Shown: positions 7,664-63,302, counted from the first letter of the stretch. The stretch is DNA of 64,000 nucleotides from an uncultured Heliobacteriaceae bacterium (GCA_964468345.1 CAYXVZ010000025.1:5328-69327); one strand, 5' to 3'. The notes: generated by a model not told the origin, from the letters alone. Program-made: numbers and translations.

Positions 7664-8590
<927 letters not shown>

Positions 8591-8684
8591 TGAGATGCCT
8601 CTTTCGGAAAAAGTATGAGTCTATCCTTAGACTTGCTTGTTAGTGCATACCTTAGCAGAACCGGGGAGGATCTCAAAATCTGCC

Positions 8685-9090
8685 CGGGAAAGTCTGGGGA
8701 AGTCTGGACAAGTCTGGAGAAGTCTCGGGAAGTCTGGAGAAGTCTCGGGAAGTCTGGAGAAGTCTCGGGAAGTCTGGGGAAGTCTGGAGAAGTCTGGAGA
8801 AGTGATTGATTTATTGGTCTCCCATATTTTCCTGGCTCCGGAGGAGCCATATATTTCTAGACATAAGTTCGCTTTCATTCCGCGCTCCGTAGGAGCGCCA
8901 TCTGCCCAGATGGCGCTCCTACGGAGCGCGGAATATGGGGGCGGGCCATGCTATAAATATTCGGCTCCGCTGGAGCCGTTACCATTCGAGGCTTCAGTGG
9001 TCGGTGCTCAAGACTTCTCAAGACTTTTCAAGACTTTTCAAGACTTTTCAAGACTTTTCAAGACTTCCCGAGACTTGCCCCGACTTCCCC
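8685..9090. repeat. composite palindrome: (GRGAAGTCTS)x12 array, structured core (8822-8975, related to the 6297-6610 core), then inverted (AGACTTYTCA)x8 array
   Basis: Direct decamer array 8685-8803. Core has GGCTCCGGAGGAGCC, CCGCGCTCCGTAGGAGCGCC..GGCGCTCCTACGGAGCGCGG, CTATAAATATT, GGCTCCGCTGGAGCC. Inverted decamer array at 9008-9090. Confidence 0.85.
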
Positions 9091-14187: not shown

Positions 14188-14319
14188 TGAGGAAAAAGGG
14201 GAGAGTTGAGTCTATGCCACTAAAATCCATTTTCACGAAGGCGCGCTCCCTCGCCCCTCGCCCCTCAACCCTCGCCCCTGCCCTTCTCGCCCCTCGCCCT
14301 TCGCCCCTCGCCCCTTTCC
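14117..14319. repeat. GGGGCGAG-octamer composite palindrome, copy 2, spanning the junction of two permease genes
   Basis: (GGGGCGAG)n with A-rich interruptions at 14117-14185. Inverted (CTCGCCCC)n at 14248-14319. Contains the stop of 13162..14187 and the putative start of the next gene. Confidence 0.85.
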
Positions 14320-15374: not shown

Positions 15375-15411
15375 TACCATCCGCTTACTTCGGCATGAAA
15401 ACTTCAATAAA

Positions 15412-29501: not shown

Positions 29502-32135
29502 ATGTTCAGTCTGAAATCGGCGATGGCTCCGCTGGGGCTCGCAATCGCCTTGCCATTGGTGTGTCTTGCGCAGAATACGGTTGCCGAATTGCCGGGAAAC
29601 TGGCCGATCCGCACGCCCAAATGGACGCAGGAAACGAAGACGTCCGGCCTGACGGGCACGGTGGAAGATCCAACCGGCGCCGTCATTCCGAATGCCGCGG
29701 TGACGCTGACGGGAAAAACGAACGGCCAGGTCAAAAAAGTCGTGGCGGACGCGGCGGGCGGTTTCAGCATTTCGGACGTGCCCGCCGGCGATTACATTCT
29801 CAAGGCAAAGGCGGAAGGCTTCGAATCCGCGGAGCGGGAGCTGAAAGTCGGCGCGGGGCCGATGGCGCCGATTCAACTGCAACTTCGCATTGCAGCCAAG
29901 GGCGAAGAGGTTAATGTGAGCGGCAAGAGCCGCGATGAGGAAGATCGCATCACGCTCGATCGCAACGCCGATCGACTGACGCTCGATGAAGACCTGCTCA
30001 AATCGCTGCCGTCGAACGCCGACAATATTCTCGGCGTTGCGGGCAATTTCGTTTCGCCGGGAGCGCTCGGCGGCGAAGGCCTCACCATCAGCGTCGATGG
30101 CGTCGAATCGGGCGGATTGTCGCTGCCGGCCAATTCGATCAAACGGCTGCGCATCAATCGCAATCCCTATTCGGCCGAATTTCGCCGGCCGGGCAAGGCC
30201 CGCATCGAAGCGCAGACCGATGAAGGCTCGTTGCGGCGTTTTCGGGGAAGGTTCGCAATGTACGCGCGAAACTCCGCGTTCGATGCGCGCAATGCCTTTG
30301 CGCGGACGCGCCCCGACCTCGACCGAAAGCTGTTCGAAGCAAATCTATCCGGCCCGATTCTCGCGAAGCGGATGGCCTTTCTGATCAGCGGCGAACGCCT
30401 GCTCAATGACGAAAGCGCGATCATCAATGCCCGCACCCTCGCCGGCCCGGTCGTGTCGAACGTCGTGACGCCCGAACGGCGAACCGGCTTTCTGGCCCGG
30501 TTGGAATATCGCCCCCGGGACAGCCACACGCTGTCGCTGCTGTACAACTATCGCGATCAGCTTGAAAGCAATCGCGGCATCGGCGGATTGCGCCTGGCCG
30601 AGCAGGCGATCAATACGCGGCAGCGAATCAACCGGCTGCAGTTCACCGATCGGCTGGTTCTTTCGCCCCGGCTGCTGAATGAATTTCGCGTTGTGGCGCA
30701 GCGTGAAAATCTGATTCGCGGCATGGCGGGCGCTTCGCCGGCGATCGTCGTCATCGGCGCCTTCACGGGCGGCCCGGCCGCGACCTTTCGAAAAGTCGAT
30801 GAAACCTCCGTGCGCATTGTGGACATCGCAAGCTATGTGGCCGGCCGGCATTCGCTCAAATTCGGCGGCGAGTTTCGCCCGAATCGCATTGCTGCGACCG
30901 ATCAATCGAATTTCGCGGGGACCTTCGAATTTTCGAGCCTCGATCAATTCGCGTCACAGCGGCCGTTTGTTTATCGCATCAATCGCGGCCTGCCGCAGGT
31001 CCTGTTCTCGCAGAACGAAGTCGCCGGTTTCATTCAGGACGATTGGAAGCTGCGCCGCAATCTGAACGTCGTGTTCGGCGCCCGCTATCAATGGCAACAG
31101 AATCTGGAAGACCGGAACAATATCGCGCCGCGATTGTCTGTGGCCTATCAGCCGGGCGGCGATCAAAAGACCGTGATTCGCGCCGGCATCGGCATGTTTT
31201 ATGAGCGCGTCGCCGAGGAAGTCACACAACGCGCCCGGCTTTATGACGGCGCGCGCATTCGCGAAACGGTGATTGCCAATCCGTCCTTTCCGATTGCGTC
31301 GCAACCCGCGGGATCGCAACCGCCGCCCAGCCTCGTTCGCGTCGCTCCCAACCTGCGCGCGCCCTATCTGTGGCAGGCAGGCGTCAGCGTCGAGCGCGAA
31401 CTGCGCAAGGGAACGCAACTCACCGTCGAATATCAGGCGCTCAACGGGCGCAAGCTGCTTCGCTCGCGCAATATCAACGCGCCGCTGCCGTCGACGGGCC
31501 TTCGTTTCGATCCGGCATTCCTGAATATCAATCAGGTGGAATCCTCGGCGGCTTCGCGCGGGCATTCGCTGGGACTGACCGTTCGCACACAGATCGGCAA
31601 GCGATTGCAGGCCATGGCGCAGTATGTTTATTCGCGGAACCGAAACGACACGAGCGGCCTGTTTTCCCTGCCGGCCAACAACTTCGATTTGCGGCCGGAA
31701 TGGGGCCGCGCCGATTTCGATCAACGACATCGTTTTAATCTGACCGGCACGGCGATGCTGCCCGCCGATTTTCAAATCGGAACGATTGTGAGCTTCGGGT
31801 CGAGCCTGCCCTATGACATCACGACGGGTTTTGACGACAACCGCGATTCAGTGGCGAATGACCGGCCCGCGGGGGGGACGCGCAATCTGGGACGCGGCCC
31901 GAATCTGGCCAGAGTCGATCTGCGGCTGACGCGCGCGTTTCGCATTCCGCGCCTGCTCGACCGGGGCCGGGATTCGACATCGAACAACCTCGAATTCAGC
32001 ATAGACATTTTCAATCTTTTCAATCGGGTCAATTTCAATAATTTCATCGGCGCGCAGAGCTCGCCCTTCTTCGGACGGGCCGCCGCCGCGGCCGAAGCGC
32101 GGGCATTGCAGTTTTCGAGCCGGTATAAGTTTTAA
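29502..32135 (+). CDS. TonB-dependent-receptor-like outer membrane protein with N-terminal CarboxypepD_reg domain
   Basis: Signal peptide. TGTVEDPTGAVIPNAAVTLTG..GQVKKVVADAAGGFSISDVPAGDYILKAKAEGF (CarboxypepD_reg). Long beta-barrel region ending ..FSSRYKF (terminal Phe). Confidence 0.8.
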   Translation: MFSLKSAMAPLGLAIALPLVCLAQNTVAELPGNWPIRTPKWTQETKTSGLTGTVEDPTGAVIPNAAVTLTGKTNGQVKKVVADAAGGFSISDVPAGDYILKAKAEGFESAERELKVGAGPMAPIQLQLRIAAKGEEVNVSGKSRDEEDRITLDRNADRLTLDEDLLKSLPSNADNILGVAGNFVSPGALGGEGLTISVDGVESGGLSLPANSIKRLRINRNPYSAEFRRPGKARIEAQTDEGSLRRFRGRFAMYARNSAFDARNAFARTRPDLDRKLFEANLSGPILAKRMAFLISGERLLNDESAIINARTLAGPVVSNVVTPERRTGFLARLEYRPRDSHTLSLLYNYRDQLESNRGIGGLRLAEQAINTRQRINRLQFTDRLVLSPRLLNEFRVVAQRENLIRGMAGASPAIVVIGAFTGGPAATFRKVDETSVRIVDIASYVAGRHSLKFGGEFRPNRIAATDQSNFAGTFEFSSLDQFASQRPFVYRINRGLPQVLFSQNEVAGFIQDDWKLRRNLNVVFGARYQWQQNLEDRNNIAPRLSVAYQPGGDQKTVIRAGIGMFYERVAEEVTQRARLYDGARIRETVIANPSFPIASQPAGSQPPPSLVRVAPNLRAPYLWQAGVSVERELRKGTQLTVEYQALNGRKLLRSRNINAPLPSTGLRFDPAFLNINQVESSAASRGHSLGLTVRTQIGKRLQAMAQYVYSRNRNDTSGLFSLPANNFDLRPEWGRADFDQRHRFNLTGTAMLPADFQIGTIVSFGSSLPYDITTGFDDNRDSVANDRPAGGTRNLGRGPNLARVDLRLTRAFRIPRLLDRGRDSTSNNLEFSIDIFNLFNRVNFNNFIGAQSSPFFGRAAAAAEARALQFSSRYKF

Positions 32136-32175
32136 CGATTGACATCATGACGCGACCTTACCTATCGTACCGTCC

Positions 32176-32757
32176 ATGACGGACTATATAGGTCTCTCTG
32201 ATGCCGAGTTGATTTCAATGTGCCTCAAGCAGGATGCCGGTGCATGGGAAGCCCTGATTCAGAGATACCACAGGCTCATCACTTCCATCACATTCAAATT
32301 CGCCCTTACGGCCGAAGACGCCGCCGATATTTATCAACTGGTGTGCATGCGGCTCTATCAGCAGATGGCGGGGCTGCGAAAACAGGAAAAGCTCAGTTCC
32401 TGGGTGATCACCGTCACGGTCCGCGAATGCTGGAAGCTGAAGAAACACCCCCTGCTGACGAACTCCCTCGATGCCCAGGCCGAGGCGGTCGGTTTTGAGC
32501 TGGCCGATGAACGAACGGTGCCGTTCGACGAATCGCTGGTCCTGATCGAAAAGCAGCACCAGATTCGGCGCGCGATGGAGCTCTTGCCTGAAAATTGCCG
32601 TCGCATGCTCGAAATGCTGTTCTTCGAAGACGAGCCTGCCTCCTATACCGAAATCAGCCAGCGGCTCGGGACGCCGGTCCCCAGCATTGGGCCGACCCGG
32701 GCCCGGTGCCTGGAAAAAATGAAACAATCCCTCAAGACCGTCGGCTTTTTACGCTGA
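32176..32757 (+). CDS. ECF-family RNA polymerase sigma factor
   Basis: Region 2 (..ALIQRYHRLITSITFKF..AEDAADIYQLVCMRLYQ..) and region 4 HTH (LPENCRRMLEMLFFEDEPASYTEISQRLGTPVPSIGPTRARCLEKMK). Confidence 0.85.
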   Translation: MTDYIGLSDAELISMCLKQDAGAWEALIQRYHRLITSITFKFALTAEDAADIYQLVCMRLYQQMAGLRKQEKLSSWVITVTVRECWKLKKHPLLTNSLDAQAEAVGFELADERTVPFDESLVLIEKQHQIRRAMELLPENCRRMLEMLFFEDEPASYTEISQRLGTPVPSIGPTRARCLEKMKQSLKTVGFLR

Positions 32758-32840
32758 CAATGTATTTTTTTCCCGTACCTGGCTCACTCATATGCCGGCC
32801 GGAAGGAGTGTCTTCGGCTTGCGCCCATGTCCAGCAACCC

Positions 32841-33491
32841 ATGGAGCTTCTGATTATGAAATGTCCTTCGATTGATCGATGGCTGAGCTACACACAAAAT
32901 CTGCTGCCCGAAGCCGATAAAGCTTTAATGTTCACGCACCTGCAGGAAGGGTGCGGAAATTGCAAAGAGAACCTGCAGTGGTTGGATGAGGTCGGGCGGG
33001 TGGCCCGGCAGGATCGATCATTTTTACTCCCCGAAGAAACCGTAAAAGGCATGGTGGCATGGTTCCGGTCGCAACCGGCGCCGGCTGGCGGCAAGCTGCG
33101 CCAACTGGTGGCAAGCCTGCTTTTTGACAGTGTTTTGCCGCTTCGCGAAGCCGCCGTTCGAAACGATTCAGCGGCATCCGTGCAGGCGGCCAGCCGGCAA
33201 ATGTTGTTTCAGACGGAAGGCTACGACATCGATCTTCGGTTCGAGTCCCTCGAAACGAGTCAGCAGGAAGACCTGCTCGGGCAGATTGTGTCTCAGGCGG
33301 AGCCGATTCCGGCTACAGAAACCGTGACAGTGCGCTTGTTGCAGGAAGAAGGGGAGAGCGCGATGGTTGAAGCGGATGCCTCGGGATTTTTCCGATTCGC
33401 GGGGATTTCCTCGGGCGTTTACGATCTGAAAATTGAGATGGCGGACGTCGAGATCCTGCTCAGCGAGATTCCAACCGCGCGGAAGAAATAA
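32841..33491 (+). CDS. putative zinc-finger anti-sigma factor with C-terminal CarboxypepD_reg-like beta-sandwich
   Basis: Directly downstream of the ECF sigma. HLQEGCGNCKENLQW (ZAS-like HxxxCxxC). C-terminal ..VTVRLLQEEGE..ADASGFFRFAGISSGVYDLKIE. Start 32841 or 32856. Confidence 0.55.
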   Translation: MELLIMKCPSIDRWLSYTQNLLPEADKALMFTHLQEGCGNCKENLQWLDEVGRVARQDRSFLLPEETVKGMVAWFRSQPAPAGGKLRQLVASLLFDSVLPLREAAVRNDSAASVQAASRQMLFQTEGYDIDLRFESLETSQQEDLLGQIVSQAEPIPATETVTVRLLQEEGESAMVEADASGFFRFAGISSGVYDLKIEMADVEILLSEIPTARKK

Positions 33492-33516
33492 TTCAGAAGT
33501 TGTTGCTGCATCCCGA

Positions 33517-36375
33517 ATGAAAATGGAAGTGACAAATAAATCGACGATACCCGAACTGGTTCACAGGCTGATCGATGCTTATCTTGGGACCGCGAACCAG
33601 GCGGCGGTCCCGAAGGGGGATATCGATTATCCGCTGATGGAGCAGTTCAAACGGGAAGTCGATCAATGGATTCGATCGGACGCGCGCCGCGCGCTGCAGA
33701 TCGCGGAACTGGCCGAGTCGCTTTCGAAAAAGGCGAGCGACCCGCGCGCCCGCGCGCTGGGAGCGCGGATGCGGGCGATGGCGCTGCACGTGCAGAGCCG
33801 ATATGCCGAAGCATTGGAATCTTATGAACAGGCGCGGTCACTCTATGCCGCCGCCGGTTGCGATGTGGATCGGGCGCGCGTGGAGCGCGCGATGGTGGAT
33901 GCCTGCATTTATCTGGGCGGCTATGATGACGCGCTTCGGCTGGCCGAGCAGGCGCGCGAAGTGTTCACGCGGCATCATGAAACGCTGCTGCTGGCGCAGC
34001 TCGAATCGAATGCCGGCAATATTTATCACCGGCTCGATCGCAATCTGGAGGCGCTGGCCTGTTATGACCGCGCCGACCGCGAATTTGCGGCGCTGGATGA
34101 CCGCGACGGCCTGGCCCGCGTTTCCTTCAATCGCGCGAACGTCTATTGCAATCTCGACGATTATCAGCAGGCCGAAATTCTTTACCAGCGCGCTTACGAT
34201 CTGCATACGGAACTGGAAAATCCGACCGGAGCCATGCAGGCCCGCTATAGTCTCGGGTACCTGCATTTTCTCCGCGGCGCTTATCACCAGGCGATGCGAA
34301 TCCTGGCCGAGGTGCGCATCGAGGCGATTCAACTCGGCGACGAACAGACGGCCGCGCTCTGCATTCTGGATCTGGCAGAAATTTACCTGCAGCTCAACGT
34401 GCTCGATGACGCCGCGACGCTCGCGACGGATGCGCGGCGCCTGTTTGAGCGGCTGGAGATGCGTTATGAAGCCGCCCGCGCGCTGACCTTTTTGGGCATT
34501 GCCAGCCTGCGGCAGGAAAAGCTGGCGGATGCGGAGCGCGCTTTCATCGAGGCGCGAAAGGAATTCGAGGCCGAGGGCAACCAGGTTCACCTGGGAATGA
34601 TCAGCCTTCACCAGGCCGAGATGCATCTGTTTCGCGAAGATTGGCTGCAGGCGAAGGCGCTGGCGGCCGAGGCGCGAGAGATATTCGGCCGGCAGCAGTT
34701 GCGCGCCCGCGCGTGCGCGGCGCAGATCGTGGAAGCCCGCGCCCTGCTCGGCAGCGGCGACCGTTCGCGCGAGCAATGCGAAACCATCGAGGCCTTGTGC
34801 GGCGAACTGGATCTGCACTGGCTCAAGGTGCAGGCGCATGAATTGCTCGGCGATGTCGCGCTGGCGGAAGGTCAGGCGGCGAATGCTTATGAGCAATACG
34901 CAGCGTCGATCGCCTGCATCGAACAGATCCGCAGCAGCATTCGCGTCGACGAGTTCCGCAGCGCCTTTTTCCGCGACAAGCTGCGCGTCTATGAAAAACT
35001 AATCAGTCTTTGCCTCGACGAACAAACGCCGCACCGCCAGGCCGAAGCCTTTTATTATCTGGAAGCTTCCAAATCCCGCACGCTCGTCGATCTTCTGGTC
35101 AATGAGATCGGCATGATGCCCGAGGCCGCCAGCCCGCAGGCCGCCGAACTCCATCGCCGCTGGAAAGAGCTTCGCGAAAAGCTGCACTGGCACTACAACA
35201 AAAGCAATCGCATCGAATCGCAGGGAAAAAGCCGTCTGCTCGGCGCCGATGAACGCGCGCGGCATGAGATTGCCTCGTGCGAGCAGGAGCTGTCTGCCCT
35301 GATGCGACAGTTGCAATACCAGGATCCGCATTTCCAGTGGTTGAAAAAACATTCGGGCATCACGGTCGAGGAACTGCGCGGCCTGCTCGATGAGGATGAA
35401 ATCGTCCTCGAGTATTATTTCGATCGGAACCAACTCGAAATCTTCGTGATCGATTGGCATTCGTTGTGCGTCCGGACAGGACCGGTCGATGTGCAAGCCA
35501 TCGGCGAACTGGTCCAAAAGCTTCGCTTCCAACTGAACCGATTCCAATACGGTTCGACCTATGTCGCGGCGCACGCGGCCCGCATGCTCAGGGAAGCGCG
35601 CGAATGCCTTCATCAATTATGGCAGGCCTTGATAGCGCCCGTGGCGGATTTGCTGCGCGAGAGAAAGCTGATCATCGTCCCTTTCGGCGGACTTCACAAC
35701 GTGCCTTTTCAGGCGCTCTATGACGGCGAACGTTATCTGATCGAAACCAATGAGCTGACGCAGATGCCCAGCGCGCAGCTTTTGAAATCCTGCTCCATCC
35801 CGGCGTCGAGGAATTATGAGCATGCCCTGCTCATCGGAGCGGCCGATGAAATTGCGCCCCAGATCACCCAGGAAACCCAGGCCATTCGCAACATCTTTCC
35901 CGAAGCCCGCTGTTTTCTCGGCGAAGAGGCGACCGGCGAGGCGCTGCTGCGGCACGCCGGTGAAAGCGATATTCTTCATATCGCCAGCCATGCCGTCTTC
36001 CGGCAAGACAATCCGATGTTTTCCGCGTTCAAGCTGGCCGATAAATGGCTCAATTTCTATGACATCTGCGGACTGAAACTGCCTGCCTCGCTGGTCACGC
36101 TCAGCGGTTGCAGCACAGGAACGAGCCGGATCTCCGCCGGCGATGAGCTGTTGGGATTGGCCCGCGGTTTTCTCACCGCCGGCGCGGATTCGCTGGTGGT
36201 CAGCTTGTGGGAAGTCGATGACGTCGCGACGGCCCGGCTGATGACCAGCTTTTACCAGCAATTACGATGCGGAAAAAACGCCGCCGCCGCCCTGCGGCGC
36301 GCCGTCATCGAGATCCAGGGAATTCACGAACACCCGTATTATTGGGCCCCGTTCGTGCTGATTTCCCGAATCTGA
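33517..36375 (+). CDS. TPR-repeat / CHAT-domain protein (caspase-like protease)
   Basis: N-terminal ~600 aa of TPR-like repeats. C-terminal CHAT with His/Cys dyad context ..DILHIASHAVFRQDNPMFSAFKL.. and ..LVTLSGCSTGTS.., ending ..HPYYWAPFVLISRI. Track start 33433 is over-extended. Confidence 0.8.
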   Translation: MKMEVTNKSTIPELVHRLIDAYLGTANQAAVPKGDIDYPLMEQFKREVDQWIRSDARRALQIAELAESLSKKASDPRARALGARMRAMALHVQSRYAEALESYEQARSLYAAAGCDVDRARVERAMVDACIYLGGYDDALRLAEQAREVFTRHHETLLLAQLESNAGNIYHRLDRNLEALACYDRADREFAALDDRDGLARVSFNRANVYCNLDDYQQAEILYQRAYDLHTELENPTGAMQARYSLGYLHFLRGAYHQAMRILAEVRIEAIQLGDEQTAALCILDLAEIYLQLNVLDDAATLATDARRLFERLEMRYEAARALTFLGIASLRQEKLADAERAFIEARKEFEAEGNQVHLGMISLHQAEMHLFREDWLQAKALAAEAREIFGRQQLRARACAAQIVEARALLGSGDRSREQCETIEALCGELDLHWLKVQAHELLGDVALAEGQAANAYEQYAASIACIEQIRSSIRVDEFRSAFFRDKLRVYEKLISLCLDEQTPHRQAEAFYYLEASKSRTLVDLLVNEIGMMPEAASPQAAELHRRWKELREKLHWHYNKSNRIESQGKSRLLGADERARHEIASCEQELSALMRQLQYQDPHFQWLKKHSGITVEELRGLLDEDEIVLEYYFDRNQLEIFVIDWHSLCVRTGPVDVQAIGELVQKLRFQLNRFQYGSTYVAAHAARMLREARECLHQLWQALIAPVADLLRERKLIIVPFGGLHNVPFQALYDGERYLIETNELTQMPSAQLLKSCSIPASRNYEHALLIGAADEIAPQITQETQAIRNIFPEARCFLGEEATGEALLRHAGESDILHIASHAVFRQDNPMFSAFKLADKWLNFYDICGLKLPASLVTLSGCSTGTSRISAGDELLGLARGFLTAGADSLVVSLWEVDDVATARLMTSFYQQLRCGKNAAAALRRAVIEIQGIHEHPYYWAPFVLISRI

Positions 36376-36424
36376 CAAGCAGGCGAAGACTCCCCCGACT
36401 TGCGTTTGCAAAGGAGATCGATTC

Positions 36425-37666
36425 ATGACACAGAGAATGTTACAGACCTGCTTTCTTCTTGCGATATTCCTTTTCTGGGTTGGATTCAACGAAGCCGGCG
36501 TGAAAACGCTCGCCTCGAAAGGCGCCAAAACTCCTGGCGCGCCGGATAGCTATCGCGCCGGCGAAGTGGTTGTGGGCATGGTTGCCGGCGGAGACGTGCA
36601 GGCGCTGGTCGCCCGGCACGATATGACGATCAAGGACCGCATCCCGGGGACCGATCAATGGTTGTTGGCGACGCCCCGGACGGTCGAGGAAACGCTCACA
36701 CGTCTCGCAACCGAAACCAGCGTGCTTTTCGCGGGGCCAAACAACAACTTTCGTCATGCCGAAATTCGCCAGCGCAGCCAGGCATTCATCGATCAGCGCA
36801 GCCAGGCGTTCATCGATGGCCAGTCGCCGGTCGATTTTTACGGCCAGCCCTCGCTTCCTCGATTGCATCTGGCTGAAGCGCATCAGATCAGCATGGGCTC
36901 CGGCGTTCGCGTCGCCGTGATCGATACCGGCATCGACTTTGCGCATCCGGCCTTCGCGGGACGGATTCTCTCGCCATATTACGATTTTCTCGACAACGAT
37001 CCCGATCCGCAGGAAATGTTGGGAGGCGCCGGCTCGGGCCACGGAACTTTCGTCGCCGGCCTGGTCGCGCTAGCCGCGCCGGGCGCGATGATTATGCCCC
37101 TGCGCGCGTTCGGCCCCGACGGCAGCGGAAACACCTTCGACATCGCCCGCGCCATTCGTTACGCCGCCGATAATGGCGCCCAGATCATCAATATGAGCTT
37201 CGGCCTGCTCGGCCGCGATGCGATGATCGAAGATGCGCTTTCCTATGCCTATGAGCGCGTCTATATGGTTGCGGCGGCGGGGAACGACAACCAGTACGCC
37301 ATTCATTTTCCGGGCGCGCGATCGAGCAAGACGCTCAGCGTGACTTCGACCGATCACCTCGACCTTCGGGCGCCCTTTTCGAATTATCATCGCGATATTC
37401 ATGTTTCCGCGCCGGGCGTCGACCTGTTTAGCGCCTATCCCGGAAAACGCTGGGCGCGTTGGAGCGGCACTTCTTTTTCCACCGCTCTCGTCACGGGCGA
37501 AGCTGCCCTCGTGCTGCGCCTGAATCCTTCGCTCGGCCGCAAGGATCTAAATGAGATTCTCACTAATGCCGGCGTCAATATCGATGGCCTGAATCCCGGT
37601 TTTGCCCGAACCCTCGGCGAGGTCCGCATCGACTTCCTCTCGGCGGTTCGAAGGGCGCGGGAATAA
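36425..37666 (+). CDS. secreted S8-family (subtilisin-like) serine peptidase
   Basis: Signal peptide. Catalytic triad motifs VAVIDTGIDFAHPAF (Asp), GHGTFVAGL (His), GTSFSTALVTGEAAL (Ser). Contains an in-frame 24-nt tandem duplication (IRQRSQAFIDQRSQAFID). Confidence 0.85.
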   Translation: MTQRMLQTCFLLAIFLFWVGFNEAGVKTLASKGAKTPGAPDSYRAGEVVVGMVAGGDVQALVARHDMTIKDRIPGTDQWLLATPRTVEETLTRLATETSVLFAGPNNNFRHAEIRQRSQAFIDQRSQAFIDGQSPVDFYGQPSLPRLHLAEAHQISMGSGVRVAVIDTGIDFAHPAFAGRILSPYYDFLDNDPDPQEMLGGAGSGHGTFVAGLVALAAPGAMIMPLRAFGPDGSGNTFDIARAIRYAADNGAQIINMSFGLLGRDAMIEDALSYAYERVYMVAAAGNDNQYAIHFPGARSSKTLSVTSTDHLDLRAPFSNYHRDIHVSAPGVDLFSAYPGKRWARWSGTSFSTALVTGEAALVLRLNPSLGRKDLNEILTNAGVNIDGLNPGFARTLGEVRIDFLSAVRRARE

Positions 37667-50094: not shown

Positions 50095-50724
50095 TTGGAG
50101 GTGAGAGTTATGGCCGTAGCTGAAGCTGAATTGAAAGTAACTATTGAGGAATATCTGCGACATGAGCGTGAGGCCGAAGAACGTCATGAATATCTCAATG
50201 GCCTCGTCTACGCGATGGCTGGCGAGAGTCCGGACCATGGCATCATCAGTGTAAATTTGGTCCGAGAACTTAGTGTTCGTTTACGCGGAGGTCCCTGCCA
50301 GCCTTTTACGAAAGACACCAAGGTTCGATGCGGGCCGAATCCACTGCCGCCTCATTCAATGCGCGGGTTGTTCGCCTATCCGGATATTGTTGTTGTCTGC
50401 GGTGAACGGCAATATCACGACAAGTACAAGGATGTTCTGCTCAATCCGACGGTGATCATTGAAATTCTCTCCAAAACAACCAAGGATTTCGATCGGGGAG
50501 AAAAGTTCGAGCATTACCGGACCTGGCTGCCATCGCTGCAGGAATACGTCTTGGTGCATCAAAGCCAGCCGCGCATCGAACATTTCGAGCGGCAGAAAAC
50601 AGGACAATGGTTATTGACCACGATTGACGGGATGGAGGCAGTGCTTCCCTTGCAATCCCTTGATTGCACGCTTGCCTTGCGGGATATTTACGAAGGAATC
50701 GCGTTTTCGGTAGTGCCTGAATAG
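50095..50724 (+). CDS. Uma2-family (DUF820) putative endonuclease
   Basis: ..EYLNGLVYAMAGESPDHGIISVNL.., PDIVVVCGE.., ..IIEILSKTTKDFDRGEKFEHY.., which is the PD-(D/E)xK-like Uma2 pattern. Confidence 0.7.
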   Translation: MEVRVMAVAEAELKVTIEEYLRHEREAEERHEYLNGLVYAMAGESPDHGIISVNLVRELSVRLRGGPCQPFTKDTKVRCGPNPLPPHSMRGLFAYPDIVVVCGERQYHDKYKDVLLNPTVIIEILSKTTKDFDRGEKFEHYRTWLPSLQEYVLVHQSQPRIEHFERQKTGQWLLTTIDGMEAVLPLQSLDCTLALRDIYEGIAFSVVPE

Positions 50725-51794: not shown

Positions 51795-51965
51795 TTCTTT
51801 TCCTCCTGGATTCAATAGTTAAGCGATGGCTTTAGTATTGCGCGGCAAGTCTCAATTGTCAAGTGAATACTTAAGTATCGATTCATGACCGAAAATAGGA
51901 ATTGCGATATGATGCCCATCGCAGTCACTCGGTACACTTCAGTCAGAGGCAGAATCCTAGAAGCC

Positions 51966-52532
51966 ATGGATGCCACGGATACGACGCAATTGCTCAATCA
52001 ATTTTCGAATGGGGACGCGGAAGCCGCGGGCCGCCTGATTCCGCTTGTCTATGAAGACCTGCGGCAGATGGCGGAGTGGTATATGAAACAGGAGCGCAAG
52101 GGGCATACATTGCAACCGACGGCGCTGGTCAATGAGGTGTATCTGCGGCTGTTTCAAAAGAAGGTCGAATACGCGAGGCGGGAGCATTTTTTCGCCGTGG
52201 CGTCGCAGGTGATGCGTCATCTGCTGGTCGATTACTCCCGGCGGATTCGTGCCGCGCGTCGCCAGGGCGAGCGGCATAAGATATCGCTCGATGAAATTCC
52301 CGATCCGCAACTGCCGGTGCGCGAGGATCTGGTGCGGCTGCACGAAGCCCTCCAGGATTTCGAGCGGCTGCATCCCCGCGCCGGGCGGGTCGTGGAAATG
52401 CGCTTTTTCGGCGGCTTTCACATCGAAGAGATCGCGCAGGCACTCGACACTTCGCCGGCGACGGTCAAGCGGGACTGGGAATTCGCGCAGGCCTGGCTGC
52501 ATCGGTATCTGGCGAATGGAAATCATTCATAG
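51966..52532 (+). CDS. ECF sigma factor, TIGR02999-like (Ser/Thr-kinase-associated type)
   Basis: MDATDTTQLLNQFSNGDAEAAGRLIPLVYEDLRQMAEWYMKQERKGHTLQPTALVNEVYLRLF is the characteristic N-terminus of this family. C-terminal region-4 HTH. Immediately upstream of the STK. Confidence 0.8.
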   Translation: MDATDTTQLLNQFSNGDAEAAGRLIPLVYEDLRQMAEWYMKQERKGHTLQPTALVNEVYLRLFQKKVEYARREHFFAVASQVMRHLLVDYSRRIRAARRQGERHKISLDEIPDPQLPVREDLVRLHEALQDFERLHPRAGRVVEMRFFGGFHIEEIAQALDTSPATVKRDWEFAQAWLHRYLANGNHS

Positions 52533-52552
52533 TCCTTCACGCCTCTGCCACG

Positions 52553-55500
52553 ATGGACAACAACAGAGAACAACAAATCAGAGAGCTGTTCGACGCGGCG
52601 ATCGAGATGCCCTCGGAAGAGCGCGCAATTTATCTTGCGACGGCAACGATGGAAGAATCCTTGCGCGAAGAGGTCCATCGCCTGATCGCATCGAGCAAAG
52701 TCGCGCCCGACTTCCTGAGCCGGGAACGCTGGCTGGGCGGTTTGTTCGGCGGCCTGGAAACAAAGCCGCCAGCTTTGATGGAGGGGCGCCGGATCGGGCC
52801 GTATCAAGTCATCCGGGAACTCGGCGTGGGCGGCATGGGCACGGTGTATCTAGCGCACCGCGCCGATGAGGTGTATGAAAAGCAGGTGGCCATCAAACTG
52901 GTTCGCCCCGATGCGCTGGCGCGTTTTTATCAGGAGCGCCGCATCCTGGCGCGGCTCGAACATCCGAACATCGCGCGCCTGATCGATGGCGGGCAGACGG
53001 ACGATGGCCTGCAATATCTCGTCATGGAGTATGTCGAGGGGCGAACGATTACCGATTACTGCGCGCATCGCCAGCTTTCCCTGCAACAACGATTGCAGCT
53101 CTTCCGCCAGGTCTGCGACGCCGTTCAACACGCCCACCGGAATCTCGTCATCCACCGCGATCTGAAGCCCACCAATATTCTGGTCGATGAGAGCGGCGCG
53201 CCGAAGCTGCTGGATTTCGGCATCGCGAAGCTGGTCGATCCGGAGGAGCAGAGCGAAACGCTGACCCAGGCGGGCATGCTTGCGCTCACGCCCGAATATG
53301 CCAGCCCCGAACAGGTGCGGGGCGAAACGGTCGCGACGACGACGGATGTGTACAGCCTGGGCGTATTGCTCTATGAGCTTTTGACGGGCAGCCGCCCGTA
53401 TCGCATTCAATCGCGTTTTGCGCCGGAGATCATTCGCGCCGTCTGCGAGGAAGAGCCCGAAAAGCCCGGCCTGCGCGTGCCCGCGCTGCGCGGCGATCTC
53501 GAGAACATCATGCTGATGGCGCTGCGCAAGGACGCGGCAGCGCGCTATCAGTCGGTCGAAGAATTCGGCAATGATCTGCGCCGCTATCTCGAAGGAGAAA
53601 TGGTCGCCGCGCGCCCCGCGACGTTTCGCTATCGGGCGGAAAAATACATCAAGCGCAATCGCGCGCTGGTCGCGGCCGGCACGGTCTTGTTTCTCGCTCT
53701 GCTTGTCGGGCTGGGAATCTTGTTCTGGCAGTTGCGGGCTTCCCGTTCGCGCGAACAGGCGCAGCGCCGCGAGCTGTATTCGATTCGCATGATGCAGGCC
53801 AGCAACGACTGGTTCGGCGACAACCCGCGAAGCTATAACGAAATCCTGCAAAGTCCTCCGATCGTGCCGCAGGCGGGCGAAGAAGATTTGCGCGGTTTGG
53901 AATATCAGTATCTATGGCACCTCGGCCATCGGGAGCGCTTCACCTTCGATTCAGTGGATACTGTCGATTTCTCTTACATGAAGGATGAAAGCGGCTACTT
54001 GCTTTCGGTACGAGACAATCGCGAGTTCACGCTCTGGCAGATCCCCTCGGGGAAGCGGATTCTGGTTCGCAACTTTCCTGCCCCGATAGAATGGCGAAAT
54101 TCCATTCCCGCTTCCGGAAATCCTTGCATCATCTATATCGATGACGGTCACGCGCTTATGCGTATGGATTTGCTCGAAGGCACGAAATGGCAAGTGCTGA
54201 GAGATCAGGAAAGCACGTTCACATATTTTGGGGGAATAGAAGGCAAAGAATGGTTAACGGCGGGTCCAAAGGGACGAATCAAACGCTGGGATTGGCGAAC
54301 GGGGCGGTATCTCGGCGCATTTGAAACCGGGATCGACCGCGTGACATATATGGGGCACACCCCGCAGCAAGGTGACCGGGTACTTGTCTTCGGCAACGCC
54401 GGAGAAATCCAGATCTGGGACCCGCCCCGAAACTCCCTCTTGATGACGCTGCCCGCCGGTTCGTTCGCAATATTTGCCGCAACGGTCCACGGATTGCTGG
54501 TGACTCGCCTCGGGAATGGCTCGCTGATCGTTTATGACCTGAAGACATTACGAAAACTGAATTCGCTTTCGCTCCCTGCCTCAGTGGGGGCTGTTGGACT
54601 TTTGCCCAACAAGCAAGTCGCTGCCGCCATTCCAGACGATAATAGTGTGCGCATTTACGATCTGCCTTCCTTGCGGATTCGGCATACGCTTCGCGGCCAT
54701 ACGGAATGGATTAATGCATTTAACGGTTCCAAAAATGGAAAGTGGATCGCGACTGCCAGCAGTGACCGGACGGTGAAACTATGGGATGCCAAAACCTTTG
54801 AAGAACTGGCGACAATTCGTGGACACCTGGACGATGTTTCTCTCGCGTATTTCATCGATCACGCCGGGCACCTGATTTCAAAGAGTGAAAAGACAATAAA
54901 AGTATGGCCTATGTCCGAGGTTCTCCGTCCTGAAGTTGTGCGCGGTCATGCCGGGAAAGTCTTTTCTGTCGCTTTTTCGCCCGACGGAAAGCTGTTGGCC
55001 AGCGCAAATCAGGACCGGACTATTCGCCTGTGGAATCCGGCCACGGGCGCCCTTGTCAATACGCTGACGGGACACCCGGGCCAGATTTTCTGTGTTTCTT
55101 TTTCTCCCGATGGCAAACATCTGGTTTCATCCGGCGAAGGGTCGAAGACGCAACCGGCGGTCGCGGCGCGCACCTGGGATGTGGCAACGGGGAAGGCGCA
55201 ATTCGAATTATGTTGCCATCGTGAGCAGATCCATTTTGCCTCGTACTCGCCCAATGGCAGGATGATTGCGACGGCCAGCGATGACAGGACAATCAAGCTT
55301 TGGGACGCAGTCAGCGGACGCGAACTTCGCAGCCTGGGCGGAGCGCCGCGCGAACTCTGGTCGTTGGCCTTCACGCCCGACGGACGATCGATCGCGGGTG
55401 GAACGGATCGAGGCGAGGTCTTTTTCTGGGATATAGAAACCGGTCGCCTCGAAAAACGAATGCAGGCGCACCCGGGATCGATCTGGTCCATCGCCTTTTC

Positions 55501-55825
55501 GCCCGATGGCCGCACCTGGGCCACCGCCAGCGGAGATGCCACGGCGCGCCTGTGGGATACCGCGACGCGCACGCTCCTTCGCGAATTCAAGGGCCATGCC
55601 GACGGGCTGTTCGAACTCGCCTTCTCGCCCGACGGCACGCGCCTCGCGACCGCCAGCAACGATAAAACCGTGCGTTTCTGGAATGTCGCCACCGGCCATG
55701 CCGTTCTGAACCTGCAAGGCCACACCGCACAGGTCTGGTCCGTCGCCTTCTCGCCCGACGGCCGAACGCTCGCCACCGGCAGTTGGGATCAAACGATCCG
55801 GCTCTATCGCGCGGCGGAGCGATAA
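52553..55825 (+). CDS. Ser/Thr protein kinase with TM segment and C-terminal WD40 beta-propeller repeats
   Basis: Hanks kinase motifs (GGMGTVYLA, VAIK, HRDLKPTNILV, DFGIAK, SPEQ). One TM helix (LVAAGTVLFLALLVGLGILFW). At least 8 WD40 repeats (..SASNDKTVRFWNVATG.., ..GSWDQTIRLY..). Confidence 0.9.
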   Translation: MDNNREQQIRELFDAAIEMPSEERAIYLATATMEESLREEVHRLIASSKVAPDFLSRERWLGGLFGGLETKPPALMEGRRIGPYQVIRELGVGGMGTVYLAHRADEVYEKQVAIKLVRPDALARFYQERRILARLEHPNIARLIDGGQTDDGLQYLVMEYVEGRTITDYCAHRQLSLQQRLQLFRQVCDAVQHAHRNLVIHRDLKPTNILVDESGAPKLLDFGIAKLVDPEEQSETLTQAGMLALTPEYASPEQVRGETVATTTDVYSLGVLLYELLTGSRPYRIQSRFAPEIIRAVCEEEPEKPGLRVPALRGDLENIMLMALRKDAAARYQSVEEFGNDLRRYLEGEMVAARPATFRYRAEKYIKRNRALVAAGTVLFLALLVGLGILFWQLRASRSREQAQRRELYSIRMMQASNDWFGDNPRSYNEILQSPPIVPQAGEEDLRGLEYQYLWHLGHRERFTFDSVDTVDFSYMKDESGYLLSVRDNREFTLWQIPSGKRILVRNFPAPIEWRNSIPASGNPCIIYIDDGHALMRMDLLEGTKWQVLRDQESTFTYFGGIEGKEWLTAGPKGRIKRWDWRTGRYLGAFETGIDRVTYMGHTPQQGDRVLVFGNAGEIQIWDPPRNSLLMTLPAGSFAIFAATVHGLLVTRLGNGSLIVYDLKTLRKLNSLSLPASVGAVGLLPNKQVAAAIPDDNSVRIYDLPSLRIRHTLRGHTEWINAFNGSKNGKWIATASSDRTVKLWDAKTFEELATIRGHLDDVSLAYFIDHAGHLISKSEKTIKVWPMSEVLRPEVVRGHAGKVFSVAFSPDGKLLASANQDRTIRLWNPATGALVNTLTGHPGQIFCVSFSPDGKHLVSSGEGSKTQPAVAARTWDVATGKAQFELCCHREQIHFASYSPNGRMIATASDDRTIKLWDAVSGRELRSLGGAPRELWSLAFTPDGRSIAGGTDRGEVFFWDIETGRLEKRMQAHPGSIWSIAFSPDGRTWATASGDATARLWDTATRTLLREFKGHADGLFELAFSPDGTRLATASNDKTVRFWNVATGHAVLNLQGHTAQVWSVAFSPDGRTLATGSWDQTIRLYRAAER

Positions 55826-55899: not shown

Positions 55900-56016
55900 G
55901 ATCAGTGCAAACAACTTTGGGACAAAGCTTTTACCACGAAGAAACGAAGAGCACGAAGAAAGACGAAAGAATAAGCCTTCTCTCTTTCTTCGTGCTCTTC
56001 GTTTCTTCGTGGTTGT
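55900..56016. repeat. CACGAAGAR-nonamer palindrome with conserved 5' flank
   Basis: CAGTGCAAACAACTTTGGGACAAAGCTTTT then ACCACGAAGAAACGAAGAGCACGAAGAAAGA-(19 nt)-TCTTTCTTCGTGCTCTTCGTTTCTTCGTGGT, a perfect 31-bp stem. After the STK gene. Confidence 0.85.
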
Positions 56017-56210
56017 GCCTTTCTTCGTTGTCCTGATTTAGTTGTAAAAAATCCAGTGACTGTCCCGGCCGGAGAGGCAATTCAATTTGCCATTAAAATC
56101 GGGTCGGCTATAATCCCCCCGCTTTCGGCGGTCTTTCTTGGCGGAACCTTTGAACAATACAATTCGATACCGTCGCGTGGCCATTCGTTCCGGCGCTCTG
56201 TGATCGAAGC

Positions 56211-56810
56211 GTGGACATGCGGCGGAGTCTTTCTATCTGGCAGCGGAGAATGGCAGACTGGGATCTTTTTTATTCATGGCTGGACCCCAATCCGGAGCGT
56301 GCCGAGGAGGCATATAAGAAGCTTCGCCAGTCGTTGATCAAGTTTTTCACGAAGATGAAACGGCAGGATTGCGAGACGCTTGCGGATGACACCATCGAGC
56401 GCCTCGTGCAGATTCTCTCCAAATCACCCGCGACGCTTTCTATCGATCCTTTTCGCTATGCCGTGGGCGTTGCGCGTTGCATTTCCCTGGAACATTTTCG
56501 AAATCATGTAAAGCCGCGGGCCGAGTTTTCGGACCAGGTGCTGCAGACGCTTGCGCCCGCAACTTCCTCCGCCGAAGCTGAACTTCTCGACCGCTGCCTG
56601 GCTCGTTGCCTGGGCGAACTCGATCGCTCCCGGCGGGACCTCCTGCTCCGGTATTACCACTTCGAGAGGCAGGACAGCAAAAAAATTCGCGATCGAATCG
56701 CCATCGAAATGGGAATCACGATCAATTCGCTGCGGTTGAAGATCATGCGCATCAAGGATGAACTGCGCGACTGCATTTCAGCTTGCCGCGAAGCCGACAC
56801 TGCCGGCTGA
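56211..56810 (+). CDS. divergent sigma-70/ECF-like factor, tentative
   Basis: Region-2-like AEEAYKKLRQSLIKFFTKM..ADDTIERL. Region-4-like ..RRDLLLRYYHFERQDSKKIRDRIAIEMGITINSLRLKIMRIKDELRDCI. Start uncertain (56211, 56217 or 56250). Confidence 0.5.
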   Translation: MDMRRSLSIWQRRMADWDLFYSWLDPNPERAEEAYKKLRQSLIKFFTKMKRQDCETLADDTIERLVQILSKSPATLSIDPFRYAVGVARCISLEHFRNHVKPRAEFSDQVLQTLAPATSSAEAELLDRCLARCLGELDRSRRDLLLRYYHFERQDSKKIRDRIAIEMGITINSLRLKIMRIKDELRDCISACREADTAG

Positions 56811-61302: not shown

Positions 61303-61359
61303 GCCATTACAAAACTTCGAATTGATAAGAACACGAAAAACAATGATCTGAGGAAAACT

Positions 61360-62199
61360 ATGAGCAGCTTATTTGAGTTGAAAAAAGAAATAACAGCCAG
61401 TCCACATGTCAGTTTTCACTTTGAAGGAGTCATCGCACTGGGGGTTCGAGATAACAGCAATCGCTTCGATGCGGGAATCATCAAGGATCCAAATAACGAA
61501 GGGGAAGTTGAAAAACATATTCGGTCCATTACTGTTACCAAAGTGCTTAAACAGGAACGCACAGTATTGATCTCAATGAGTGGAATGAGAGGAGATGAGT
61601 TGGTGCTTGATTTCAAAGAGATAAATCCAGGACGAATCAACCTATTTGAGGGCAAGAAGAACCCATTCGATGTAATCAACGCTTTCAAATGGGTGATCGA
61701 TGTCGAAAAGCACATGCATAACAATAATAGAGTTAAGGTCGTAGACTCTGCGCTTCGCACTGTTCTTCGCGTACTAAATACCCCTGACACACTGTTTTAT
61801 GCTGACGATGTGGTTACAGATCCCATCCCTACGGAAGAAGAGAATGGGTCGAAATTGTCTAATATTGATGCTTCTGCTGAATGTATAAAGGCTCTTGTGC
61901 CTTTGAGGCGTACCCTATTTCTCAAGAAAAAAGTGTCTGATGGACGATTTATCGACTTGTGTGAATTGAATGTTGAGGACGATGTTCGGTACGAGATCGT
62001 TTTCAAAAATTCCTGCAATCCGATTGAATGTGAAGATGAAGATATTGATGTGGCTCCGATCTATAACAATTTGATTGGGAAGCCGAGCGGTGCAAGTCTG
62101 CGTCGCATCTTCAAAGTGAAAGCAAGACTTACTCCAGCGTCCCAGTGTGCGCCTATTAACTTCGGTGTATCCGGAGAATTGCCTGATCCGGCAAGTTGA
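61360..62199 (+). CDS. hypothetical protein, compositionally foreign (~43% GC), no recognisable domain
   Basis: Clean 279-codon ORF immediately after the TPR-CHAT gene. Codon usage is AT-biased, unlike all neighbours. No motif I can assign. Confidence 0.6.
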   Translation: MSSLFELKKEITASPHVSFHFEGVIALGVRDNSNRFDAGIIKDPNNEGEVEKHIRSITVTKVLKQERTVLISMSGMRGDELVLDFKEINPGRINLFEGKKNPFDVINAFKWVIDVEKHMHNNNRVKVVDSALRTVLRVLNTPDTLFYADDVVTDPIPTEEENGSKLSNIDASAECIKALVPLRRTLFLKKKVSDGRFIDLCELNVEDDVRYEIVFKNSCNPIECEDEDIDVAPIYNNLIGKPSGASLRRIFKVKARLTPASQCAPINFGVSGELPDPAS

Positions 62200-62579
62200 T
62201 CGCTTATCGAAGGAATCCCCCAATGGGGACTGGTTTTCTACATTCCTCCGTCTCAGCACCCAAACGGTGCTGAGACGGGGTAGCAGCGGCTGAGGACGTT
62301 GATGGAAACTGTGGGGAGCGCCTCTTCCCGCGAAGGCGTCCATTCGCTAGCCGAAGCCCGCCTTCCTCGAAGCATCAAAATTGTTCTGAAAATTTTCTCT
62401 CCCGCCTACATATGATGAGATCGCAAAAAAATTTCAGCCGATCGAAAAAGTTTTTTTGCGCTCCGCCCGCCTGCAAACCGAGCTTTATAAAATTCGTGAC
62501 CATCCGAGAGGCGCAAGAGTCTTACCCATGACTGAAAAATTCGGTTTCGGACAGGGAACTTCAATTGTGGAGAAGAGAG

Positions 62580-63095
62580 ATGAAGGTGCGAAATATATTC
62601 TTCGTTGTCATTGCTGTGTCGATCCTCGGCATCGCAACCCTCTATGCGCAGGAAGGCGGCCGCCGCGGCCGTCCGGGCGGGCCTGAGATGATGCGTCGCT
62701 TTCCCGTGATGGCTGTGCTGGATGCAAACGCCGATGGCGAGATCTCAGCGGAAGAGATCACCGGCGCCTCCGCGGCCTTGCGCAAACTCGATAAAAACGG
62801 CGACGGCAAACTGACGGAAGAGGAAATCCGGCCGAATTTTGAAGGCGGTCCCGGCGGCCGGCGCGGCGAAGGACCCGGCGGCCCCAATCCCGAGGAAATG
62901 GTCAACCGCCTGCTCGAATTCGATAAAAACAGCGACGGCAAACTCAGCAAAGACGAAGTGCCCGAGCGAATGAGCGGCCTCTTTGAACGCGGCGACGCCA
63001 ATAAAGACGGCGTCCTCACCAAAGACGAACTGCGCAAACTCGCCGAAGCGCAATCCGGTGGCAGCCCCCGCCGCGAAGACCACGATCACGAGTGA
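62580..63095 (+). CDS. secreted EF-hand calcium-binding protein (4 EF-hand loops)
   Basis: Signal peptide MKVRNIFFVVIAVSILGIATLYAQ. Loops DANADGEISAEE, DKNGDGKLTEEE, DKNSDGKLSKDE, DANKDGVLTKDE. GGAGAAG Shine-Dalgarno before the start. Confidence 0.75.
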   Translation: MKVRNIFFVVIAVSILGIATLYAQEGGRRGRPGGPEMMRRFPVMAVLDANADGEISAEEITGASAALRKLDKNGDGKLTEEEIRPNFEGGPGGRRGEGPGGPNPEEMVNRLLEFDKNSDGKLSKDEVPERMSGLFERGDANKDGVLTKDELRKLAEAQSGGSPRREDHDHE

Positions 63096-63302
63096 AAGTC
63101 CAGAGAAGTCTAGAGAAGTCTCGGGAAGTCTGGAGAAGTCTCGGGAAGTCTAGAGAAGTCTAGAAAGGTCTAGAAAAGTCCCGAAAAGTTTCGAATCGTC
63201 TGAATGGTAGAACTTAGAACTGTATTGACTTCCCGAGACTTCTCAAGACTTCTCCAGACTTTCCGAGACTTCTCAAGACTTCTCAAGACTTTCCGAGACT
63301 CT
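63096..63302. repeat. GAGAAGTCTN-decamer composite palindrome, copy 2 (no embedded core)
   Basis: (CAGAGAAGTCTAGAGAAGTCTCGGGAAGTCTGGAGAAGTC...)x~10, a ~32-bp centre, then the inverted array (GACTTCCCGAGACTTCTCAAGACTTCTCCAGACTT...). Confidence 0.85.

Follow-up and report, generated by a model that had tools for sequence, protein, structure and literature searches.

A conserved, unannotated gene accompanies a sigma factor, anti-sigma and TPR-CHAT protease cassette

Introduction

In DdvA, an anti-sigma domain is followed by a single transmembrane (TM) helix and then by an extracytoplasmic TPR-CHAT part, as has been shown structurally (PMC11506125). In the type III-E Craspase module, which comprises the TPR-CHAT protein Csx29, Csx30, Csx31 and an RpoE-like sigma factor, the protease cleaves a sigma-binding protein (PMC10028731). 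ECF54, a group of extracytoplasmic function (ECF) sigma factors defined in Actinobacteria, has no obvious anti-sigma factor, and carboxypeptidase-regulatory-domain, subtilase and CHAT proteins are encoded nearby (PMC8999054, PMC7826278). Bacterial gasdermins (bGSDMs) have also been paired with CHAT proteases (bioRxiv 10.1101/2021.06.07.447441). In this study, we analysed a 64-kb stretch of DNA from an uncultured Heliobacteriaceae bacterium (GCA_964468345.1, CAYXVZ010000025.1:5328-69327), the whole of which is called the window here. It contains an AT-rich open reading frame (ORF) at 61360..62199, the product of which we call protein X. The original prediction had named X as a prime candidate for a horizontally acquired effector or substrate of the CHAT protease encoded next to it.

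We found that X is the conserved fourth gene of a cassette that also encodes an ECF-type sigma factor, an anti-sigma protein with a periplasmic TPR part and a paralogous TPR-CHAT cysteine protease. As in DdvS/DdvA, an ECF-type sigma gene lies beside a single-pass protein with a predicted extracytoplasmic TPR-CHAT part and a His-Cys dyad. We tentatively propose that X is a cytoplasmic output of the sigma pathway, or at least one of its closely linked components.

Results

Conservation of X behind the TPR-CHAT gene

The relationship between X and CHAT genes was investigated in 14 independent contexts, namely the window (with L001, L012 and L013), L002, L003, L004 (with L005, L006 and L009), L007, L008, L010, L011, L014, L015 (with L016), L017, L018, L019 and the P0051 contig. 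In all 14, X was located immediately 3' of a TPR-CHAT gene on the same strand, at identities from 99% down to ~20%. The upstream TPR-CHAT genes encode 1100-1240 aa where complete, and a sigma gene of ~185-210 aa precedes the CHAT part in all nine contexts with enough upstream DNA. Eight sigma copies were aligned; TIGR02989 matched 8/8 (best 7.6e-14) and sigma70-ECF 7/8, all below the curated cut-offs. An alignment of 12 CHAT domains showed that LH.A.H and AC(R/Q)(S/T)G are kept in all intact X-linked copies, the exception being the interrupted copy of L007. There (8473-8820) the C-terminal part of the CHAT gene is in a separate ORF, and two X copies, a Peptidase_S8 gene and a 185-aa gene are intact. 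The same contig carries a second sigma/anti-sigma-like/CHAT group, without X, at 13823-16249.

X is a real gene of a tiny, undescribed and unannotated protein family. The 279-codon reading frame on the strand of the CHAT gene was confirmed as predicted, no in-frame upstream extension is possible, and no second X copy was found in the window. An indexed search of 5.8 billion proteins returned only three relatives, at 99%, 38% and 29% identity. When 1.84 billion cluster representatives were searched exhaustively with a profile, 35 were found; most have 260-320 aa, a small number are shorter fragments and one has 367 aa. The earlier remark that no motif is recognisable was correct, as X matched nothing in Pfam, NCBIfam, PADLOC or PHROGs. 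For all 31 members of the family alignment, Pfam, NCBIfam, PADLOC and PHROGs gave nothing except a twin-arginine translocation (Tat) signal match in one member. Searches of PDB sequences with X by phmmer and with the X family profile gave nothing meaningful, and no X relative was found in IMG/VR scans. The named relatives come from metagenome-assembled genomes (MAGs) of Pyrinomonadaceae or Acidobacteriota, and from these alone we infer that the cassette hosts are Acidobacteria-like. A scan of GTDB species genomes gave no hit for the close subfamily and three Pyrinomonadaceae MAGs for subfamily 2, which is described below.

In the 31-sequence alignment, His53 and Cys263 (window numbering) are invariant, and Gly23, Asp114, Phe146, Tyr211 and Tyr235 are near-invariant. 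The invariant pair together with Asp114 suggests a catalytic or metal-binding site. Subfamily 1, which includes the window X, further conserves Cys219, Cys224 and a C-terminal tail, C..NFG....LPDPA. Tandem X duplicates with 46-53% identity were found in L007 and L011.

Cassette genes and predicted topology

The coordinates of the cassette genes are listed in Table 1. The window sigma factor matched TIGR02989 (1.3e-13) and sigma70-ECF (2.4e-5), both under the curated cut-offs. The 339-aa anti-sigma-like protein has an N-terminal domain reading YLLG...EEDLIDDYARGVL, and its TM helix spans about residues 121-139. It gave a weak zf-HC2 match (E 0.053). Its N-terminal 90 residues contain one His (residue 4) and no Cys, and therefore no CHCC pattern. 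The CHAT protein aligns through its juxtamembrane residues 56-243 with residues 152-339 of this protein at 43% identity (E 1e-38). The prediction that X adjoins a repeat-domain caspase-like protease was borne out, and both residues of the CHAT dyad are kept, His in AVHG and Cys in AACRS.

Two subfamilies were distinguished among the relatives. In subfamily 2 (L004, L007, L008, L010 and L011, from Pyrinomonadaceae MAGs) the CHAT protein is fused, in the order acidic helical domain (YLLGxL...ELIDxYxxGxL), one TM helix and TPR-CHAT. In subfamily 1 (the window, L003, L015 and L018, and L002 by sequence) a separate protein of 339-367 aa carries the N-terminal domain with its TM helix, and the CHAT protein starts with a basic N-terminus and a TM helix of its own. 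The division of X into subfamilies follows the split and fused forms of the anti-sigma protein. Between the window and L003, CHAT is 47% and X 33% identical; between the window and L002, the CHAT C-terminus is 71% and X 42% identical. Judged by these identities, X co-diverges with CHAT and does so faster.

An anti-sigma domain has to lie in the cytoplasm, and a single TM helix separates it from the TPR-CHAT part, which is therefore predicted to be extracytoplasmic, that is, periplasmic. In the window CHAT protein, 10 of the first 27 residues, ahead of the single TM helix, are Lys or Arg, and the same orientation is therefore expected for it. The window X has no signal peptide and no TM helix, and the same is true for nearly all relatives. 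Tat-type leaders are present in P0007 (SRRDFVKATVAASAGLLIVPA; Pfam TAT_signal, E 0.004) and P0028 (RRSFLRSALA), and a lipoprotein-like leader in P0036.

A signal-less Peptidase_S8 gene follows X in L004 (11024-13153), L007 (11094-13259) and L008 (4662-5660). In L004 and L007 it is followed by a gene for a protein of ~185 aa, which resembles the S8 N-terminal region (30% identity, E 4e-10) and may be a free prodomain or an inhibitor; the L008 contig ends inside S8. No S8 gene was found in the window cassette or in other subfamily-1 loci.

Predicted fold and the gasdermin question

An AlphaFold2 model built with three sequences was unusable (pLDDT 31), and the 31-sequence alignment was used instead. 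The resulting model had a pLDDT of 93.9 and a pTM of 0.91. It is mainly beta, with ~18 strands and a few short helices, and comparison of the N-terminal and C-terminal halves of X with hhalign showed no internal repeat. When this model was compared with 350,000 PDB chains by Foldseek, no chain reached E <= 1e-3 and TM-scores peaked at ~0.1-0.16; BFVD also gave no match. According to this model, X has a confidently predicted fold without a match among solved structures in the PDB and in BFVD.

Structures of bacterial and mammalian gasdermins are present in the PDB, and PADLOC includes bGSDM models. The gasdermin-like N-terminus suggested in the original prediction found no support: Foldseek against the PDB returned no gasdermin or other pore-former fold, and there was no sequence match. 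We therefore rejected X as a bGSDM, as the twisted beta-sheet fold of gasdermin-N and the profiles were not matched and the palmitoylation Cys is lacking. The window X begins MSSLFELKKEITASPH, and the bGSDM-type Cys at residue 3 or 4 is absent. Across the family, the first ~20 aligned residues contain no conserved Cys, and scattered Cys residues occur in some members from the first strand onward. One feature of bGSDM loci, an adjacent gene for a caspase-like or subtilase protease, is present, as CHAT in all 14 contexts and additionally as S8 in three.

X could nevertheless be a protease-activated effector or substrate, from which CHAT or the subfamily-2 subtilase releases a toxic or pore-forming activity by cleaving, for example, the C-terminal tail. 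Such a role is suggested by the strict adjacency of X to CHAT, for which bGSDM-CHAT pairs are a precedent (bioRxiv 10.1101/2021.06.07.447441). The S8 gene after X in three loci, with the prodomain-like gene next to it in two, and the conserved tail of subfamily 1 point in the same direction. X also evolves fast and is duplicated in tandem, and the Tat signals of P0007 and P0028 would place these variants in the compartment of CHAT. However, CHAT is predicted to be periplasmic, and X and most of its relatives lack a signal peptide, which makes direct cleavage difficult to reconcile with the topology. X also has neither a gasdermin or other pore-former fold nor an N-terminal Cys, and subfamily-1 loci, the window cassette included, have no S8 gene. 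The tail is modelled as packed (pLDDT ~94), which neither supports nor excludes cleavage. Of the original substrate/effector claim, the CHAT adjacency holds, but we regard the role itself as distinctly unlikely.

Promoters and expression

Near-consensus housekeeping-type sites were found before the sigma genes of L004, L010, L011, L015 and L018, some with an extended -10, and a similar site in the window is listed in Table 1. The sensor module therefore looks constitutively expressed. The CHAT-X spacers of subfamily 2 are 157-534 nt long, and all five share a block, G(A/G)C(A/G)C(G/A)TTT-N11/12-GTCATA, with ECF-like spacing. It is located 13-37 nt after the CHAT stop in four loci and ~370 nt after it in L007. 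In L010 and L011 the motif GACACGTTTT-N11/12-(G/A)TCATA occurs twice per locus, at ~5230 (minus strand) and 9783 in L010 and at 2969 (minus strand) and 7474 in L011. One copy is upstream of X; the minus-strand copy, ~230 nt upstream of the sigma gene, points towards a divergent operon, which in L011 encodes a small membrane protein of 184 aa and an amidase-caspase-like protein of 628 aa. These motif pairs flanking the sigma/anti-sigma genes are candidate promoters of a sigma-specific regulon, and X of the Pyrinomonadaceae subfamily appears, from the motif, to have its own sigma-dependent promoter.

The subfamily-1 spacers are 57-99 nt long, and no shared promoter motif was found in them or in the 57-nt spacer of the window. 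The window, L003 and L007 share a CAAAACTT similarity, which we considered too weak for a promoter motif. Because its spacer is short and has no conserved promoter motif, the window X probably shares a transcript with the CHAT and sensor genes.

The same spacers bear on another explanation, that X is an accessory signalling component. It would be a cytoplasmic Cys/His hydrolase or a metal- or redox-binding protein, which processes or stabilises the anti-sigma stub or the sigma factor, or feeds in a second, intracellular input. Without a separate promoter, X of the window subfamily would be produced in parallel with the sensor, and it co-diverges with the CHAT and anti-sigma proteins. The conserved His53, Cys263 and Asp114 would fit such a protein. 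In addition, the authors of the DdvA study propose that, after intramembrane cleavage, the stub of the anti-sigma factor left in the cytoplasm still has to be removed (PMC11506125). However, tandem duplication, as in L007 and L011, is unusual for a stoichiometric subunit, the long subfamily-2 spacer carries a promoter-like motif, and Tat-exported variants exist. Moreover, X is unlike any known hydrolase fold in the PDB and BFVD searches. We consider this explanation unlikely, though less so than cleavage of X by a protease.

Origin of the low GC content

The GC content of the X gene was 0.430, close to the predicted ~43%, and its GC at third codon positions (GC3) was ~0.425. The background had been overstated at ~63%; the window mean is 0.582 and the CHAT gene has 0.616. 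The 34 other long ORFs of the window have a mean GC of 0.591 (sd 0.024) and a mean GC3 of 0.690 (sd 0.050), which places the X gene at z = -6.6 and z = -5.3, respectively. The minimum-GC 840-nt stretch of the whole 64 kb begins at 61301. Codon fit was calculated as log-odds against the synonymous codon usage of the window's other genes, and X had the poorest fit in the window (z = -4.7). The deviation was thus reproduced by calculation. Re-encoding the X protein with host codon usage gave an expected GC of 51.8% and GC3 of 0.654; ~7 GC points of the deficit come from a composition rich in Lys, Asn, Ile, Asp and Val, and ~9 from synonymous choice. Strain L001 (~99% identical) has the same low-GC X gene, which differs from that of the window by two synonymous and two non-synonymous substitutions, too few for dN/dS. 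The second most deviant composition in the window is that of a Uma2-family nuclease gene at 50095-50724 (GC 0.506, GC3 0.543).

The GC content of X minus that of CHAT was -7.5 points in L019, -5.1 in L018, -4.3 in L002, ~-2.5 in L003, L014 and L017 and ~0 in subfamily 2. The gap in the window, 18.6 GC points with GC3 29 points lower, is unique among the contexts.

Such a gap could mean that X is an unrelated foreign orphan, recently inserted and behind CHAT by chance. The GC of 0.43 against 0.58-0.62 and the poor codon fit would agree with this, as would the flanks of the cassette, which are unlike those of the relatives, with an EF-hand gene instead of typA downstream. However, X occupies the same slot in 14/14 contexts down to ~20% identity and co-diverges with CHAT. 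Neither a tRNA, an integrase nor direct or other flanking repeats were found around X, and the IMG/VR scans gave no homologue. The conserved synteny essentially refutes a chance insertion, which we regard as highly improbable. The claim of horizontal acquisition is right as to the GC and codon deviation, but the homologues in the same slot argue against an unrelated insertion.

Since the X slot and the protein divergence are congruent with CHAT, like-for-like replacement is the simplest explanation for the AT-rich window X, that is, in-situ replacement by an orthologue from a lower-GC relative. No donor was found. Alternatively, AT-richness may have been selected, for example because it damps expression.

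Flanking and neighbouring features

The X gene starts close behind the CHAT stop as predicted, but the spacer counts 57 nt rather than 58. The predicted hairpin downstream of X is also real, with its position 1-2 nt off. The folding energy of the 101-nt hairpin region is -42.5 kcal/mol (z = -3.45 relative to shuffled sequences), and in L001 a loop base of the 15-bp hairpin is changed and the stems are kept. Because a T-run follows the smaller upstream hairpin and none is present at the 15-bp hairpin, the former is the better terminator candidate (Table 1). A search of Rfam around the X gene gave nothing relevant.

In subfamily-1 relatives the cassette abuts a convergent typA/bipA gene. The window has in that place a gene of internally repeated DNA for a small protein with four EF-hand motifs (62565-63095), and its cassette therefore lies in a different chromosomal neighbourhood. 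After the EF-hand gene, arrays of a 10-nt unit occupy 63096-63300, with ~9 copies of AAGTCTNGAG and then ~7 copies of the complementary GACTTCNCAA, forming an imperfect inverted repeat with arms of ~79 nt. The same decamer arrays occur at 8685-8803 and 9007-9086, which makes them a dispersed repeat element.

Just upstream of the cassette, an ECF sigma gene (PF07638) directly precedes a gene for a 1090-aa Ser/Thr kinase-WD40 protein (51885-55825). A perfect inverted repeat of 31 nt with a 19-nt loop lies between the kinase gene and the sigma gene of the cassette (55933-56013). Rfam matches it, with a sub-threshold score, to a miRNA-like hairpin, and it is probably a terminator or insulator. A second protease cassette (29502-37666), without an adjacent X homologue, is included in Table 1.

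Table 1. Positions of the X gene, its cassette and flanks, and the second protease cassette in the window.
Feature	Position	Strand	Remarks
Sigma-70-type promoter-like site	56087..56114	+	TTGCCA-16-TATAAT, 11/12 match, upstream of the sigma gene
Divergent ECF-type sigma factor	56211..56810	+	Likely start ATG 56250, as called in L001
Anti-sigma-like protein, 339 aa	56909..57928	+	Acidic helical N-terminus, one TM helix, periplasmic TPR (predicted)
TPR-CHAT protease, 1112 aa	57964..61302	+	Pfam CHAT 1.3e-57 and TPRs, one TM helix
CHAT-X spacer	61303..61359	+	57 nt, AT-rich, GAGGA Shine-Dalgarno at 61350-61354
Protein X gene	61360..62199	+	ATG start, 279 codons and stop, begins MSSLFELKKEI
Small GC hairpin, then T-rich run	62216..62239	+	TCCCCCAATGGGGA; candidate intrinsic terminator
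15-bp perfect hairpin	62246..62280	+	Loop CAAAC, stem 62246-62260/62266-62280, no T-run
CarboxypepD_reg/outer-membrane barrel protein	29502-32135		Second cassette
ORF of 298 aa, unknown	32595-33491		Second cassette
Second TPR-CHAT gene, 980 aa	33433-36375		Second cassette; Cys site reads SGCSTG
Peptidase_S8 with fervidolysin-like prodomain	36425-37666		Second cassette

Discussion

We tentatively favour X as a cytoplasmic output or effector of the sigma pathway, or a tightly coupled component of it, over X as a direct substrate of CHAT. By analogy with DdvS/DdvA, an extracytoplasmic cue would activate the periplasmic CHAT protease, which would clip the anti-sigma protein; in the window the paralogous 339-aa protein would be clipped in trans. 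The sigma factor would then be released by intramembrane proteolysis. The tandem duplicates, the housekeeping-type promoters of the sigma genes, the spacer motif of subfamily 2 and its recurrence at the divergent operon all point to X as an output. Direct cleavage by CHAT is topologically disfavoured because the CHAT domain is predicted to be periplasmic and X has neither a signal peptide nor a TM helix.

Several observations weigh against X as a sigma-dependent output. No known homologue indicates its role. The short spacers of the window subfamily (57-99 nt), with no conserved promoter motif, suggest that X would there be expressed constitutively along with the sensor, as fits a pathway component no less than an output. 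The promoter motif itself was inferred from five related loci only. The variants with Tat or lipoprotein-like leaders (P0007, P0028 and P0036) imply that X can work in the periplasm, the compartment of CHAT. Furthermore, the window CHAT gave no sequence match to DdvA in a search of PDB chains, and the mechanism is borrowed by architectural analogy.

A more far-reaching possibility, which we hold to be rather unlikely, is that X founds a new-fold family serving as the dedicated effector of an unrecognised, Acidobacteria-centred class of split and fused TPR-CHAT anti-sigma cassettes; exported variants of X might instead be the cognate periplasmic substrate. If this were true, an envelope-sensing caspase-like protease would switch on, or act on, a His/Cys-dependent protein. 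This protein would partner with a cytoplasmic subtilase in some lineages and possibly, in L011, with the amidase-caspase fusion of the divergent operon. Such a system would be a new kind of inducible module for stress, defence or cell death.

For experiments, X offers a definite target for deletion, expression and mutagenesis at His53, Asp114 and Cys263, and the split architecture offers a natural test for cleavage of an anti-sigma protein by a protease in trans. The analysis also removes a tempting gasdermin annotation.

The cassette shares features with several known systems. Like bGSDM-protease operons (bioRxiv 10.1101/2021.06.07.447441), it places a beta-rich protein of ~250-300 aa beside a repeat-domain caspase-like protease, some X relatives have an adjacent subtilase, and X has a short conserved C-terminal tail. 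In contrast to bGSDMs, X has no gasdermin fold or sequence signal and no conserved N-terminal palmitoylation Cys. The cassette protease is membrane-anchored with a catalytic domain predicted to be periplasmic, and it is part of a sigma/anti-sigma module.

Type III-E Craspase likewise links a TPR-CHAT protease genetically with an ECF-like sigma factor and with small proteins whose fold is unknown. However, the window has no Cas7-11 gene and no CRISPR-like array, the Csx29 model (E 0.019) and the III-E sigma model (E 0.006) matched far below cut-off, and Csx29 is cytoplasmic. X was rejected as Csx30 or Csx31, as it had no NCBIfam match and the window no such array.

The ECF54 context was compared by description only. 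CHAT, subtilase and CarboxypepD_reg genes recur near the sigma gene in L015, L018, L004 and L007, and in the second CHAT/S8 cassette of the window. An X-like gene is not mentioned in the ECF54 descriptions (PMC8999054, PMC7826278).

Several differences from DdvS/DdvA were found. The window and subfamily 1 split the anti-sigma and CHAT parts over two paralogous membrane proteins, and the window anti-sigma domain lacks the CHCC zinc motif (ZASD). The cassette sigma genes have housekeeping-type promoters instead of self-dependent ones. What is conserved downstream is X, accompanied by a subtilase in some loci, and not CBASS or CRISPR-Cas, and the hosts are Acidobacteria-like, whereas DdvS/DdvA is from Myxococcus, one of the Myxococcota. 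A phmmer search of the window CHAT against PDB chains returned designed TPR proteins only and no DdvA, the presence of which in that set is unconfirmed. On the other hand, the subfamily-2 relatives share with DdvA the fused layout of anti-sigma domain, TM helix and TPR-CHAT, and in both systems the genes immediately downstream are candidate sigma-dependent outputs. DdvA is so far the single studied case of a CHAT-type anti-sigma factor. The locus described here extends such modules to Acidobacteria-like bacteria, in fused and split forms, and reveals one small unannotated family without a recognisable fold that is inseparable from a clade of them.

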